DNA of 27,204 nucleotides from Pseudomonadota bacterium (GTDB lineage: Bacteria; Desulfobacterota; Desulfobacteria; Desulfobacterales; RPRI01): assembly GCA_043825875.1 (NCBI GenBank), contig JBDRRF010000048.1:1-27204 (forward strand). Reading direction: 5' to 3'. Of this stretch, positions 3,001 to 12,000 are shown piece after piece; position 1 is the first letter of the stretch; each line of letters starts with the position of its first letter. Made by a program: the position numbers.

Positions 3001-6000
3001 TGGCCTATCCCTTTTTGTGTCAGCTGATGAACAACCTCATATGTGAGAGTGCCTGACCTTGATACAACCCCTATAGGTCCACCAGGTTGATGGATATGTC
3101 CTGGCATAATTCCGACTTTACACTCTCCCGGTGTGATTATTCCGGGACAATTCGGCCCTATTATGCGGCTTTTTTTGCCGGAAATATAATTTTTAACTTT
3201 CATCATATTCATAACCGGAATCCCTTCGGTAATCACCACAATCAAAGGAATACCAGCATCAGTTGCTTCCATAATTGCATCTGATGTAAAAGGAGGAGGC
3301 ACAAAAATCATGCTACAGTTAGCTCCTGTTTTTTCCACTGCTTCATTTACTGTGTTAAAAACAGGCACTTCATCCATTTTCTGTCCCCCTTTTCCGGGGG
3401 TAACTCCAGCAACAACATTGGTTCCATAAGCAACACACTGACGCGTATGAAATTGCCCTTCTTTTCCTGTAACACCCTGGACAACAAGTTTTGTATCCTT
3501 ATTAACAAAAATACTCAATTTCTATTCCCTCGCGTATATGTAAAACTATATAAAATAGCATAACCATGCTAAGAATAAATAAAACCTTACTAAAAACAAT
3601 TCTCAGGAAGTATTTAAATCAAGAGTTTACGATACCGGCCACTTTATTGGCAGCATCCTGCAAATCAACAGCCGTAATAAGATTAAGCCCTGAATCCGAA
3701 AGAATTTTCCTTCCTATTTCCACATTTGTTCCTTCCATGCGGATAACAACCGGTACGGCAATACCCGTTTTTTTTGCTGCCTGAACAACGCCTTCTGCAA
3801 GAACATCACATCTTAAGATACCGCCGAAAATATTTATGAAAATTCCTTTTACATTCTTATCTCCGAGTATAATCTTAAAGCCGTTTTCAACCATTTCGGC
3901 ACTAGCTCCGCCACCAACATCAAGGAAATTGGCAGGCTCGGCTCCTGCAAGCTTTATGATATCCATAGTAGCCATTGCAAGCCCTGCACCATTTACCATA
4001 TTTCCTACATTCCCATCCATTTTGATGTAGTTCAGATTATATTTGGATGCTTCTACTTCAAGGGGATCTTCTTCATCAATATCCCTATATTCAAGTATGT
4101 CTTTGTGGCGGAAAAGGGCATTATCATCAAAGGTTATTTTTGCATCAAGAGCAATAACCTTATCTTCAGCAGTAATTACTAGAGGATTTATTTCAAGAAG
4201 AGAACAGTCATAGTCTACAAAAAGCTTATAAAGGCTATTTAGCATTCCGGTGAATTCTTTTACGGCACCTTCCGGCAAATTAAGCCCGTAAGCTGCATGC
4301 CGGCAATGGTATGGATAGATCCCGGCAACCGGATCAACAAAAATTTTAATGATCTTTTCCGGTGTCTTCTCAGAAACTTCCTCAATATCCATGCCTCCGG
4401 CCTCACTGGCCATAATAACATTTTTTGCAGTAGACCGATCAGGAATAATTGAAAGGTAAAGTTCTTTTTTGATATTAAGTCCCTGTTCGACCAACACCTT
4501 TTTAACAAATCTTCCTTCAGGTCCTGTCTGATTGGTGACAAGTGTCATTCCTAAAATACTTTCAGCTGTACTTCTTGTTTCATCAGTGGATTTGGCAAGC
4601 TTTACACCTCCTCCTTTACCGCGTCCGCCGGCATGAATCTGTGCCTTTACAACAACCGGAAAACCACCAAGCGTATCTGAAACCTTAACCGCTTCTTCAG
4701 GACTGAACGCAACGCCTCCCATCGGAACAGGAATGCCGTACTTTTTGAATAATTCCTTTGCCTGGTATTCATGAATTTTCATACTATGTTAGTTTCCTTT
4801 TAAACCATAGGAGATCTTTTTAAGAACGTTCGATTTTGCTAAAACTCAAGAGCTATCCGAAGTATAGCAGATAGAATATATAATATATCCGATAGTTTAA
4901 TAAATATTGCCCAAGCCTTGAAGCGTATTTACCAAACGGACAAAAGGGAGCGTTTACTAAAGGTCTCTATATATTTCATATGTGTTGGTTAATTTTTAAT
5001 TATGACTTTTCACGAGATTACCATTTGAAGATAAAATCGTGAAAAGTACACCATTTACTAACCTATTACACATAAAACAGCGTCTTTGGGAACGGAATCT
5101 CCGCTTTTAAAATTTATGGTCTTTATTACTCCGTCTGCCGGTGAAGGAAGGGCATTTTCCATTTTCATTGCTTCAAGGATTACAATCGTATCCCCTTTCT
5201 TAACCTCATCTCCAACTTCTTTTGAATATGAAATTATCATCCCTGGCATCGGTGCATTAAGAGTAACCCCGTCTGCTGCAACTGGTTTAGGAGCTTTTTC
5301 TTTGGCAGGTGATCCGGCAGGCTTTGGTGCCGTAGCCTGTTGTGGCGCAGTAGGTTCAACCTGCTGAATATAATTGACAACCGGTGCTGCCCCGCCTATT
5401 TCTTCAACTCCAACTTCAAAATTTTCCCCGTCTATAACAACATTAAATCTACGCAATGTGTCCCCCTTTGTTGGAACGTTATTCTTTTCGACTTTTTCAA
5501 CAAGCACTCCTGCTTTTGCCTTGGCTATGATTTCCTGTTCCGCCTTAACCTGCTCAAGGGTTCTGGGTTTTACTTCTTCAGGAGGCTCTTCTTTGCCATA
5601 TTTCCATCTTAAAAACTTTTTACCGGTAACCGGATAAAGCGCATAAATCAACACATCATCAATATCAGTGGTAAGATCCTTGACAGCTTCTTTTGCTTTT
5701 TCAAGTTCAGGTTCAAGCACTTCAGCAGGCCTGCATGTAATTGGTTTTTCACCGCGAGGATATCCCTTAAGAGCTTTTTTCTGAAGCTCCTTATTTATCG
5801 GAATGGCGGTTTTACCATACAAACCGTAGCACAGATCTTTCACCTGAGCGGTGATCATTTTATATCTTTCATTTTCATCATCAAACAATACATTATTAAC
5901 CGTCTGAATACCTACTATCTGGCTGGTAGGTGTAACAAGCGGAATTTGACCCAAATCTTTTCTTACTTTCGGTAATTCTTCATAAACCTTATCTATCTTG

Positions 6001-9000: not shown

Positions 9001-12000
9001 TCTTTAAGATCCTTAATCTTATCTTTCACAATACCCATAACAAAGTTCCTTTCTTCATATTTTACATCAAGCCTGTTTCTTATAGGTAACACTTTTATTG
9101 TCAAGAAAAAAAAGAAGTTCACCTGATGCAATAGTCGGAGCTTTAGTTCCGCTTTCAACATCACGGATTATTTTTGGAAGACTCTTTTTCACATCAGGAT
9201 TGCCAAAAAATCTTTCCTTAAGCCCTTCTTTAACAAGTGCCCACATCCAGTTTACCATCTGTTTTTTTCTGTTTTTCTCAAGTTCCCCGCTTTTTGTCAT
9301 TTTATTTCTGTGATCAATAACAATGTCCCAGATTTCATTTAGTCCCTTCATTTCCATAGAACTGCAAATAACAACCGGTGGTGACCATGTTTGTGATGGC
9401 GGTGCAATAATGTGAAGAGCCGATTCATATTCCGACCGTGCTTTTTTAGCCTTTTGCACATTATCGCCATCTGCTTTGGTTATAGCTACGGCGTCTGCAA
9501 TTTCCAGAACCCCTTTTTTTATACCCTGATACTCGTCTCCTGCACCGGCCAACATGAGAACAAGGAAAAAATCAACCATAGAAGATACTTCGGTTTCAGA
9601 CTGACCAACTCCTACAGTTTCAACAATTATTACGTCAAAACCGGCAGCTTCAAAAACAAGCATTGTTTCTCTTGTTTTTCTTGCCACTCCTCCCAAAGTA
9701 TCCCCCGAAGGAGACGGTCTTATAAAAGCATTTGGCTCTATGGAAAGCTTTTCCATGCGCAGCTTGTCAGCCATAATGCTTCCACCGCTTCTTTTGCTGC
9801 TGGGATCAACAGCCAAAACCGCTAACTTGTGGCCTTTATTGACAAGCGTCATTCCGAAGCTTTCAATAAACATACTTTTTCCTACACCCGGAACGCCGGT
9901 AACACCCAAACGTACAGCTTTTCCCGTGTAAGGCAAAAGCAGGTCAACAATGGTTCCTGCAAGATCATAATGGGACGGATGAGAACTTTCTATTAAAGTT
10001 ATTGTTTTAGCCAGAATACGCCTGTTTCCTTCAATAACCCCATTTACATAATACTGCGGATCATCCGGCATTTTATTTGTCAGCATATCACTATATAGGA
10101 TTCAAGGATTCAAGGGTTCAAGGGTTCAAGCGAATAGATGTTTTTTCCATGGCCCCTTGCCTTTATAAATACCTGCTATCCCTCCCTTATCTATTAACAG
10201 CTCACAGCATTATGAGCTTACGAAATATTCTATTTCCGGCTTTCAAAAAGAGCATTTAATACCTTGTTGGAAGACTCAGTGATCGGTGTGCCTGGACCAA
10301 ATATTCCAACAGCGCCTGCTTTGTACAGAAAGTCGTAATCTGAAGGAGGAATTATGCCTCCCACAACAACAAGAATATCTTTTGCGCCTTCAGCTTTAAG
10401 GGCTTCAATGAGTTGTGGTACAAGCACCTTGTGACCTGCTGCAAGGCTTGAAACTCCGACAACATGAACGTCATTTTCTACAGCCATACGTGCAGCCTCT
10501 TCCGGTGTCTGGAACATCGGGCTTATATCGACATCAAACCCCAGATCGGCAAAAGCGGTGGCAACAACCTTAACGCCGCGGTCATGCCCATCCTGGCCCA
10601 TTTTTGTCAGTAAGATTCTCGGTCTTCTTCCATCTATCTCAAAAAATTCATCCGTTCTTTTCTTGATGGAAGCAATTATCTCACTGTCTCCATATTCAGA
10701 GGCAAAAACTCCCGAAATACACTGTGTAGTGGCAACAAATCTTCCGAATACTTTTTCCATGGCATCCGTAATCTCCCCTATTGTCGCTCTGGCGCGCACA
10801 GCCGGAAGACATGCTTCAAGAAGATTGCCACCGGATTCAGCGCAGTTGGTTATTGCTTCAAGTGTTTTTTGGACTTCGGCTGCGTTTCTTTTCGCCTTGA
10901 TTTCCTTTAGTCTTGCAACCTGCTCCTCACGTACAGTGGCCGACACCTCAAGAACATCAAGCGGTATTTCTTCTTCCATTTTATATTTATTCACACCGAC
11001 AATAACATCTTTGCCCTGATCTATTCTTGCCTGTTTTCTCGCTGCTGCCTCTTCAATTCTCATTTTAGGCATGCCGGTAGTAATGGCTTTAGCCATTCCG
11101 CCAAGATCTTCGATTTCTTTTATTATCTTTTTTGATTCAGTAATAATGGCATTGGTAAGTGATTCAACATAATATGAGCCGCCGAGAGGATCTACAACAT
11201 GGCATACCTGGGATTCTTCCTGGACGATGATCTGTGTATTTCTTGCAACTCTTGCCGAAAAATCCGTCGGCAATCCTACAGCTTCATCAAAAGCATTGGT
11301 ATGCAAAGACTGTGTTCCGCCAAGTACTGCCGAAAGGCATTCCAAGGTTGTCCTTATTATATTATTATAAGGATCCTGTTGAGTAAGGCTCCAGCCGGAT
11401 GTTTGGCAATGGGTTCTTAACATCAAAGACTGCTTCTTTTTTGGATTAAACTGGCTCATTATATCGGCCCAAAGATAACGGGCTGCTCTTAGCATTGCTA
11501 TATCCATGAAAAAATTCATTCCTATTCCGAAGAAAAAGGAAAGACGTGGAGCAAAAGCATCTATATCAAGTCCTGCCGCAAGTGCTGCTTTTGCGTACTC
11601 AAGGCCATCGGCCAGAGTAAACGCAGTCTGTAAAACCGAACTTGCTCCGGCTTCCATCATATGGTAACCGCTTATGCTGACCGTATTGTATTTAGGCATA
11701 TTTCTTGAGCAGAATCCGATAATATCGGATATGATTCTCATGGACGGTTCGGGTGGATAGATATATGTGTTTCTTGTAAGGTATTCTTTTAAAATATCAT
11801 TTTGAATGGTACCGTTTAATTTTTCATGTGCAACACCTTGTTCTTCCGCAGCAACAATGTAACCTGCAAGAATGGGAAGAACAGCGCCGTTCATAGTCAT
11901 CGATACGGACATCTCATCAAGCGGAATCTGGTCAAACAGGATTTTCATATCTTCTATTGAATCTACTGCAACTCCGGCTTTACCGACATCACCCACTACT

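Follow-up and report, generated by a model that had tools for sequence, protein, structure and literature searches.

A propionate-operon biotin transcarboxylase as the likeliest stand-in for the missing acetyl-CoA carboxylase of a Desulfobacterales sulfate reducer and its sampled relatives

Introduction

Among the closest described systems is an enzyme from Propionibacterium freudenreichii subsp. shermanii, methylmalonyl-CoA:pyruvate transcarboxylase (EC 2.1.3.1), which comprises the 12S (PDB 1on3), 5S (1rqb) and 1.3S components; the portion of PMC8085960 available to us reports that it forms malonyl-CoA, with acetyl-CoA and oxaloacetate as substrates. In Pelotomaculum thermopropionicum and other propionate oxidizers, the mmc cluster combines mmcH (alpha), mmcI (epsilon), mmcJ (carrier) and mmcL (5S) with the mutase, the epimerase and SucCD, and the accessible part of that source states no malonyl-CoA role (PMC8892533). 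That a transcarboxylase might replace acetyl-CoA carboxylase (ACC) is not a new idea, having already been put forward for Clostridium thermocellum, Caldicellulosiruptor bescii and Entamoeba (PMC5414155, PMC7071700, PMC8136499). C. thermocellum is without a standard ACC, and its metabolic model relies on the putative malonyl-CoA transcarboxylase Clo1313_1523-1526 (PMC5414155); in C. bescii, a four-gene CT-small-carrier-OAD operon (B5X54_RS07175-07190), likewise putative in function, is FapR-regulated together with fab genes (PMC7071700). In the excerpts of these two sources, the basis is a model assumption and regulation data, with no enzyme assay seen. The Entamoeba/Mastigamoeba transcarboxylase is a protist enzyme for fatty-acid elongation, whereas the locus described here is bacterial, with three genes that belong to an operon of the propionate pathway.

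Our literature searches returned neither an order-wide case for a transcarboxylase as an ACC substitute nor activity data for any Desulfobacterales enzyme, and the consulted parts of PMC12541407, PMC8100219 and PMC3199775 hold nothing on malonyl-CoA supply. Here, we describe a carboxyl-swapping biotin enzyme that, judged from sequence, is the likeliest stand-in for the missing ACC in a Desulfobacterales sulfate reducer and its sampled relatives; that the principle has been proposed in other anaerobes limits the surprise.

Results and discussion

Operon organization

The window, a stretch of 27,204 nucleotides from a Desulfobacterales genome, contains a transcarboxylase core (12S-type carboxyltransferase (CT), small epsilon-like subunit and 5S::biotin-carrier fusion) within a methylmalonyl-CoA operon. 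The features, in window coordinates, are:

2640..3518, minus strand, succinyl-CoA synthetase alpha (SucD; PRK05678, 463 bits, over cut-off)
3619..4782, minus strand, succinyl-CoA synthetase beta (SucC; PRK00696, 582 bits, over cut-off)
5058..7034, minus strand, 5S/OadA/PycB-type pyruvate-oxaloacetate carboxyltransferase::biotin carrier, 658 aa (PF00682, HMGL-like; PF02436, PYC_OADA; PF00364, biotinyl)
7216..7425, minus strand, epsilon-like (MmcI/MmdE/PccX-like) small subunit, 69 aa, conserved in 41 aligned loci
7485..9038, minus strand, 12S/MmdA/PccB-type acyl-CoA CT, two-domain, 517 aa (PF01039, E 2e-193)
9067..10086, minus strand, MeaB GTPase (PRK09435, 475 bits, over cut-off)
10230..12374, minus strand, methylmalonyl-CoA mutase (PRK09426, 1236 bits, over cut-off)
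12413..12817, minus strand, methylmalonyl-CoA epimerase (TIGR03081, 162 bits, over cut-off)
12918..13535, minus strand, TetR-family regulator, first gene of the cluster (PF00440)

A first-pass annotation had described a fused 5S-plus-carrier protein adjoining a 12S-type CT; both ORFs were recovered, and the CT lies directly upstream of the 5S fusion in 64 of the 66 loci with enough flanking sequence. The same gene set makes up the mmc cluster, where, in the accessible part of PMC8892533, mmcJ and mmcL are separate; here, they are fused. The CT-bearing operons of C. thermocellum and C. bescii, as far as their sources could be consulted, differ further in being from Firmicutes, in keeping the carrier separate from 5S and in not being tied to mutase genes. 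With mutase, MeaB, epimerase and SucCD all in the cluster, the annotation's caveat that the operon also serves propionate and succinate metabolism is well founded, and the methylmalonyl-CoA pathway (propionyl-CoA to and from succinyl-CoA) is very probably the main job of the transcarboxylase. This context, propionate and succinate rather than fab genes, counts against the malonyl-CoA reading developed below.

The operon may, alternatively, act on propionyl-CoA and succinate only, with malonyl-CoA supplied by an unrecognized biotin-free enzyme, or acyl chains by reversed beta-oxidation or uptake. The clustering speaks for this, with at least one of mutase, MeaB and SucC near the CT in 56 of 66 loci, as do the likeness to the known mmc cluster and the transcarboxylase activity reported for the propionate pathway of Desulfobulbus (PMC3072085). 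However, the malonyl-CoA-requiring FabD, FabH, FabF and PKS-type acyltransferases are retained; the CT (match at E<=1e-150) occurs in 148 of 151 order genomes and is kept where the mutase neighbours are absent (loci L113 and L116); and the fused type and AccA are mutually exclusive in a phylum sample at a cut of at least 750 bits. We consider this alternative improbable.

Homologues of the TetR regulator, 60-83% identical, adjoin the cluster in many loci. A search upstream of 26 tetR genes found an AACA-n-TGTT palindrome in 13, the window's copy not among them; the palindrome has nine matches in the genome, none at fab genes, and no shared operator was found, a further point against the malonyl-CoA reading. 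A promoter and terminator scan (51 promoter-like sites versus 36.6 ± 6.1 in shuffles) was not informative, and a plasmid search returned distant OadA/PycB only.

Fatty-acid genes and biotin carboxylase

ACC catalyses what textbooks give as the committed opening step of fatty-acid synthesis in bacteria. In this genome (completeness 99.8%), family searches confirmed the annotated combination of FabD, FabH and FabF without AccA, AccD or AccB. FabD scores 308 bits against TIGR00128 (cut-off 260.9), and FabH and FabF adjoin ACP. AccA was not found, the sole AccD match, below cut-off, is this operon's CT at 59 bits, and AccB-type carriers are absent (TIGR00531, 41 bits versus 115); the genome has no separate AccA/AccD, no AccB carrier and no intact AccC with which to assemble a heteromeric ACC (AccABCD). 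The annotation had left out a second CT, a second biotin carrier and two Na+-pump OadB genes. The other CT being GcdA, family assignments support the 12S-type CT as the only plausible acetyl-CoA-carboxylating half-enzyme of this genome.

The single biotin carboxylase (BC)-like gene lies, as the annotation had it, in an acetophenone-carboxylase-like cluster (MpsC, BC, hydantoinase A, hydantoinase B/acetone-carboxylase-gamma). Aligned to PccA, it has histidine in place of arginine at 292 and 338, proline in place of Gln294, and GCNA as its glycine loop, positions that we take to be catalytic. This gene, the one BC in which catalytic residues were read, scores below the accC cut-off, shares 46-47% identity with its counterparts in two relatives from the genus and is absent from the third; it is degenerate, devoid of two catalytic arginines. 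No BC::carrier fusion, the alpha subunit of an actinobacterial-type acyl-CoA carboxylase, was found in this genome, and no BC lies near the 5S fusion as a PycA partner. A two-subunit pyruvate carboxylase is accordingly represented by its PycB-type CT::carrier half; PycA is absent from the 49 genomes with the fusion and no BC.

These observations bear on a reading in which the carrier is charged by an ATP-dependent BC, with the 12S-type CT functioning as an acyl-CoA carboxylase of the actinobacterial type. A BC domain is present in 97 of 151 order genomes, the CT resembles PccB/AccD5 structures at the 60% level, and genome G004 carries a CT-BC-carrier cluster. The reading nevertheless fails in 54 genomes because BC is absent there; the BC here is without R292 and R338 and sits among hydantoinase-family genes; and among the BC proteins of ~1230 aa, the one checked is a single-chain pyruvate carboxylase. 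We hold it to be very unlikely.

Sequence features of the transcarboxylase core

The CT scores 863 bits against TIGR01117 (mmdA), below the cut-off of 999. Its whole chain finds 1vrg as the best PDB match, with 1on3 at E 1.6e-184, while the pocket fragment matches the 12S subunit 1on3 best (79.9 versus 65.2 bits). The pocket loop GGSYLAMC is common to the P. shermanii 12S subunit. Leu411 occupies the position of D422 in ScPccB, where none of the 82 CT motifs read has Asp, and the D422I substitution broadens ScPccB to acetyl-CoA (PMC7835884). By best match, the acyl pocket resembles that of a CT reported to accept acetyl-CoA.

In the 5S fusion, D34, K201, H230 and H232, presumably the ligand residues, and the EAMKM motif (biotinyl Lys, K624) are invariant in 41 sequences. 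The best PDB matches are 5ks8 (PycB), 2nx9 (OadA) and 1rqb (5S; E 1.4e-114). The fusion exceeds the cut-off for PycB (PRK09282, 723 bits versus 402), but not for OadA (687 versus 757) or the 5S equivalog PRK12330 (484 versus 827). The epsilon-like subunit, with W45 and M54 invariant across 41 aligned loci, had no Pfam or NCBIfam match; an Atlas hit to PF26062 PccX (score 0.88, 34% of members) serves as a lead only, and the subunit may act as an adaptor. A complex prediction for CT, 5S residues 495-570 and the epsilon-like subunit scored 0.05, which supports neither outcome.

The three functional parts of the P. shermanii enzyme are all represented: a 12S-type CT, a 5S-type carboxyltransferase with intact ligands and an EAMKM carrier. 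In contrast to that enzyme, the carrier is fused to 5S, an epsilon-like subunit is added, the 5S part is nearer PycB/OadA than 1rqb, and the host has OadB pumps and no ACC; with PRK12330 below cut-off, the protein is like the family and not a Propionibacterium orthologue. Relative to the Na+ decarboxylases MmdABC, OadGAB and GcdABC, the CT is like MmdA and the fusion like OadA, and oadG-oadB and gcdA are present in the genome; yet the operon encodes no membrane subunit, and both proteins fall below the cut-offs for MmdA and OadA. In addition, two CTs could be served by a single carrier. The adjacency of the genes in 64 of 66 loci is compatible with 12S and 5S sharing one carrier, as they would in an ATP-free and membrane-free transfer.

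Distribution in the order and phylum

We examined a sample of 151 Desulfobacterales genomes. AccA is present in 0 of 151, in line with the order-wide absence noted earlier; the best ACCA match has E 6.7e-15, and among the matches listed, all lie in ORFs of at least 364 aa, a further 255 weaker matches falling outside that list. The 5S fusion occurs in 134 of 151. BC is missing from 54, as it is from the complete genome of D. magnum 4be13 (L010), so the claim that some order genomes are without any BC stands. The companion claim that all of these carry the fusion does not, 49 of 54 having it. Of 56 genomes searched for FabD-type acyltransferases (G000 plus 55 with no BC or a weak one), 54 gave a match, 45 of them over cut-off. 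Five apparent losses of 5S (G014, G054, G068, G106, G123) were rejected as assembly breaks because the contig sequence stops right after CT-epsilon, in two cases inside the beginning of 5S; G040 has a short carrier without a 5S domain at a contig break, and G028, without CT, FabD and OadB, is treated as incomplete.

Across the phylum sample, we found the close fused type in 38 of the 63 genomes without AccA and in 0 of the 98 with AccA, kin not being independent; the type is defined as the 38 best matches, of at least 750 bits, a cut set after the ranking was seen. These 38 fall in the order and 14 other families; looser 5S matches are found in 46 of the 98 AccA-bearing genomes, and a BC domain is present in 23 of the 33 genomes outside the order that have the fused type. 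PEPCK, a source of oxaloacetate, is present in 55 of 56 genomes tested. Since a motif scan missed the PEPCK of this genome, which the family search found, motif blanks were not counted as evidence. PEPC was not found in this genome.

Malonyl-CoA supply and the carboxyl donor

What the sequences show is gene content, domain make-up, unbroken catalytic and biotin motifs, absences and co-occurrence; from these we infer the direction and flux, the use of acetyl-CoA and the formation of a complex as follows. The CT, epsilon-like subunit and 5S::carrier would form a soluble biotin transcarboxylase, in which the 5S domain transfers a carboxyl group from oxaloacetate onto the biotin arm fused to it, for the 12S-type CT to hand to an acyl-CoA. 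Without ACC, the CT would also accept acetyl-CoA, feeding malonyl-CoA to FabD/FabH/FabF, and oxaloacetate would be regenerated by PPDK and PEPCK or by malic enzyme and MDH. The ATP-independent transcarboxylation proposed earlier applies to the transfer step, but not overall, because oxaloacetate must be remade; as cellular oxaloacetate is low, the near-equilibrium transfer would rely on the pull of fatty-acid synthesis.

The CT is probably the source of malonyl-CoA for fatty-acid synthesis; the donor is less certain because OadB offers another loading route. We place the probability that the donor is oxaloacetate, through soluble transcarboxylation, at roughly 0.55. The earlier view that the transcarboxylase must be the source, as the remaining route, is too strong. 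OadB is present in 53 of 55 BC-less genomes, compared with 50 of 55 for 5S, and 97 of the 151 order genomes carry a BC domain; moreover, three FabD-bearing genomes without BC and PYC_OADA (G091, G100, G136) hold CT, a stand-alone carrier and OadB.

Should malonyl-CoA come from the mmc-type transcarboxylase, annotations and genome-scale models for the order would contain a gap that can be filled in a specific way, and interpretations of lipid carbon isotopes in these bacteria may assume the wrong enzyme. ACC appears to be missing from a large order of sediment sulfate reducers that live under energy limitation, and roughly one in three of the genomes sampled lacks BC altogether; D. magnum 4be13, cultured and with a closed, BC-free genome, offers a direct test system.

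Na+-driven loading of the biotin arm

The same CT could instead, though less probably, draw on a biotin arm loaded from CO2 by OadB/OadG reversed on the sodium-motive force, in effect a Na+-driven acetyl-CoA carboxylase; 5S would then be a side entrance to a carboxybiotin hub that the enzymes share. Na+-pumping decarboxylases usually run in the decarboxylase direction. Acetyl-CoA carboxylation through reversal of such pumps is, by its title, the subject of Dimroth and Hilpert 1984 (cited in PMC7274780). One of the two OadB genes here belongs to a stand-alone oadG-oadB pair without its own CT or carrier, and OadB is commoner than 5S in BC-less genomes. Orthologues of this OadB occur in 100 of 151 order genomes, preceded by oadG in 47 of 48 loci, and an OadG::biotin carrier fusion is found at one of the 48 (L144). 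The pair lies away from the CT operon in this genome, and an operon is shared in 4 of 48 loci: at L111 and L174 the partner is CT-epsilon-5S, at L175 and L176 a divergent 5S-like gene. The 5S-less, FabD-bearing G091, G100 and G136 fit such loading, but they are metagenome-assembled genomes (93-96% complete), and G043, congeneric with two of them, has 5S and a pyruvate carboxylase. Further against it, this OadB type is missing (E<=1e-150) from 14 of 49 BC-less genomes with 5S and from all three other genomes of this genus, and G031, with CT, 5S and FabD, has neither BC nor OadB of any kind.

It is possible, if doubtful, that a hub of 12S CT, 5S CT and stand-alone OadG-OadB replaces ACC and often pyruvate carboxylase in Desulfobacterales, making malonyl-CoA out of acetyl-CoA and CO2, directly or via oxaloacetate, with the sodium gradient paying for it and no ATP-grasp enzyme involved. 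If true, it would constitute an in vivo Na+-driven acetyl-CoA carboxylase throughout an order of sediment bacteria.

As to gene neighbourhoods, which were given no weight as evidence here, FabD was not seen near oadG-oadB in 40 narrow loci (about 3 kb of flank). In four loci picked for their proximity, FabD adjoins oadG-oadB (L107) or lies 2-10 kb away (L108-L110).

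Organization of the transcarboxylase operon

The transcarboxylase genes of the window, and the order in which they are transcribed, are as follows.

7485–9038, minus strand: 12S-type acyl-CoA carboxyltransferase (CT), 517 aa
7216–7425, minus strand: epsilon-like ORF, 69 aa
5058–7034, minus strand: 5S-type carboxyltransferase fused to a biotin carrier (the fusion), 658 aa
Minus-strand gene order: tetR, methylmalonyl-CoA epimerase, mutase, MeaB, CT, 69-aa ORF, fusion, SucC, SucD

The window carries the gene set of the known mmc cluster, as described in PMC8892533, from which it differs in that the carrier and the 5S domain are fused. 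The nearest relatives belong mainly to Desulfobacterales, with additional members in Desulfobulbales and Cloacimonadota. Among 66 usable loci of 80 (flank of at least 2.3 kb; 14 shorter loci were left out), 64 have CT immediately 5′ of the fusion and 56 contain mutase, MeaB or SucC. Across 41 fusion sequences, neither the metal-site residues nor the biotin motif varies.

Repeats punctuate the window: units of the 8-nt GG(G/A)TTCAA type form a hairpin in the epsilon–5S intergenic gap (7086–7180) and lie in tandem in the spacer that separates mutase from meaB (10091–10131), and two intergenic repeat pairs of 32–45 nt with 84–88% identity lie at 18182–18282/19294–19443 and 20461–20492/26981–27012. 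In one order genome (G040; loci L092, L129, L130), the gene 3′ of epsilon joins the N-terminal 20 residues of 5S directly to the biotin carrier; this short gene sits at a contig break and could reflect either genuine absence of the 5S domain or an assembly error.

Absence of acetyl-CoA carboxylase

The host genome (99.8% complete) encodes FabD, FabH, FabF and ACP, and searches of it for AccA, AccD and AccB found none. Its biotin-related complement comprises two CTs (that of the window and a GcdA matching 3gf3/1pix at E about 1e-226), two biotin carriers (the fusion plus a 71-aa protein preceding an oadB), two OadB proteins and one biotin carboxylase (BC)-like gene. PEPCK, malic enzyme, MDH, PPDK and PFOR were found; a search for PEPC in the same genome returned nothing. 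The BC-like protein (contig C75, 16386–17765; loci L001, L121) is full length, and its gene is flanked by MpsC and hydantoinase A/hydantoinase B-acetone-carboxylase-gamma genes. Relative to PccA (6ybp), it carries R292H, R338H and Q294P, with a glycine loop reading GCNA. In E. coli AccC, these arginines bind bicarbonate and biotin; with His at both positions, the protein probably does not act as a biotin carboxylase and may instead have been recruited as the ATP-grasp subunit of a carboxylase that works without biotin. This strengthens the case made for this genome in the first-pass annotation, which had placed the lone BC in an acetophenone-carboxylase-like cluster.

We surveyed 151 genomes of the order, the host included, each at least 90% complete. 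No true AccA was found among them; ACCA matches fell in two-domain or fused ORFs and reached E 6.7e-15 at best, whereas true AccA proteins from other parts of the phylum score 1e-120 to 1e-150. CT is present in 148/151 and the fusion in 134/151; of the 17 absences, 10 were inspected, and in five of them the contig ends directly after CT-epsilon. A BC domain occurs in 97 genomes, counting G024, whose only BC match is a divergent 850-aa protein, and is missing from 54, of which 49 carry the fusion. No BC was found in the complete D. magnum 4be13 genome, and BC is present in four other named genomes tested. When the 54 BC-less genomes, G024 and the host are taken together, 54/56 hold FabD-type domains and 55/56 PEPCK. 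Within this sample, the absence of acetyl-CoA carboxylase (ACC) is real and order-wide.

The gene for the 850-aa protein of G024 (L179:1264–3816) is the sole BC-like gene in that genome, which is closed and 2.1 Mb in size. In nine genomes that are BC-less or weak-BC (G024, G033, G050, G055, G069, G078, G133, G139, G142), malonyl-transferase domains are confined to large PKS/Pfa-size ORFs, and no stand-alone FabD over the cut-off was found. L132:9295–12975 encodes a single-chain pyruvate carboxylase of about 1230 aa whose CT is divergent and which ends in a zinc ribbon; BC matches in ORFs of about 1230 aa recur across about 25 order genomes.

Across the phylum, an AccA-like match (E ≤ 1e-25) is present in 98 of 161 genomes and absent from 63. 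The 38 best fusion matches (at least 750 bits, a cut set post hoc from the ranking) all fall in AccA-less genomes, five belonging to the order and 33 spread over 14 further families, related genomes not being independent; BC is present in 23 of these 33. Looser 5S matches occur in 46/98 AccA-bearing versus 55/63 AccA-less genomes. The pattern is consistent with replacement of ACC, short of proof. In the control set, Thermotoga maritima repeats this pattern: it has CT, PYC_OADA, OadB and FabD, with neither a BC nor a strong AccA match.

Acceptor and proposed carboxyl path

The CT pocket fragment (residues 395–450) best matches the P. shermanii 12S subunit (79.9 bits; next, 65.2), and Leu411 aligns to position 422 of S. 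coelicolor PccB. According to PMC7835884, Asp422 of that enzyme favours propionyl-CoA and D422I admits acetyl-CoA, while a Thermobifida enzyme is promiscuous despite Asp there, which makes position 422 a weak substrate guide. None of the 82 CT motifs examined has Asp at this position.

Most likely, the carboxyl group would pass from oxaloacetate through 5S and the biotin arm to CT and on to acyl-CoA. We infer all fluxes that follow. With propionyl-CoA as acceptor, the product would feed the epimerase, mutase and SucCD; with acetyl-CoA, malonyl-CoA would form, pulled by fatty-acid synthesis. Oxaloacetate could be remade via PPDK and PEPCK, malic enzyme and MDH, or a reversed pump, and because it must be remade the overall route would not be energy-free.

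Such a route has precedents. A C. thermocellum model uses a putative transcarboxylase because standard ACC is missing (PMC5414155). In C. bescii, a FapR site accompanies the CT–hypothetical–carrier–OAD operon, whose expression increases together with that of the fab genes upon fapR deletion (PMC7071700). An Entamoeba enzyme is stated to catalyse malonyl-CoA-forming transcarboxylation (PMC8136499), and Desulfobulbus shows transcarboxylase activity in its methylmalonyl-CoA pathway (PMC3072085). Searches of the main text of largely open-access papers found none that states ACC loss or a transcarboxylase route for Desulfobacterales, though genome-model supplements could carry such an assignment. 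What is new here is a variant form and the wide host range of an already known, putative malonyl-CoA route.

Possible alternative carboxyl donors

The first-pass annotation held that malonyl-CoA must come from oxaloacetate. This is too strong, and its parts list was incomplete in overlooking the OadB pumps: OadB is present in 53/55 BC-less or weak-BC genomes, and three genomes (G091, G100, G136) combine FabD, CT and OadB with a free carrier and have neither BC nor 5S. G031 is the reverse case, with 5S and no OadB. A 1984 paper cited in PMC7274780 names in its title the carboxylation of acetyl-CoA by Na+ pumps running in reverse. CT is thus the constant part of the system; the carboxyl donor may be oxaloacetate, the Na+ pump or, where a BC is encoded, ATP.

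One OadB type forms a stand-alone oadG–oadB pair in the host genome (C8:40450–42035; L009), is conserved in L137–L176 and has orthologues in 100/151 order genomes. At 48 loci of this type, oadG lies 5′ in 47 and a common operon with CT-epsilon-5S(-like) genes occurs in four. One locus (L144:4306–5106) encodes an OadG–biotin carrier fusion, in which the carrier closely resembles the C-terminal part of the 5S fusion. The C-terminal soluble domain of OadG, which matched no Pfam family, is conserved and bears a PHPHLT motif; a cyclic-nucleotide-binding gene lies 5′ of the pair in 11/48 loci. In L175 and L176, the gene 3′ of an oadG–oadB–CT–epsilon operon encodes a carrier fusion of ~600 aa that shows only a weak HMGL-like domain and lacks a PYC_OADA match, possibly a degenerate 5S. 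Five loci of relatives whose cultured members are Desulfobulbales (L016, L046, L049, L062, L063) hold a second cluster of CT, carrier and OadB (Mmd pump), convergent with the transcarboxylase.
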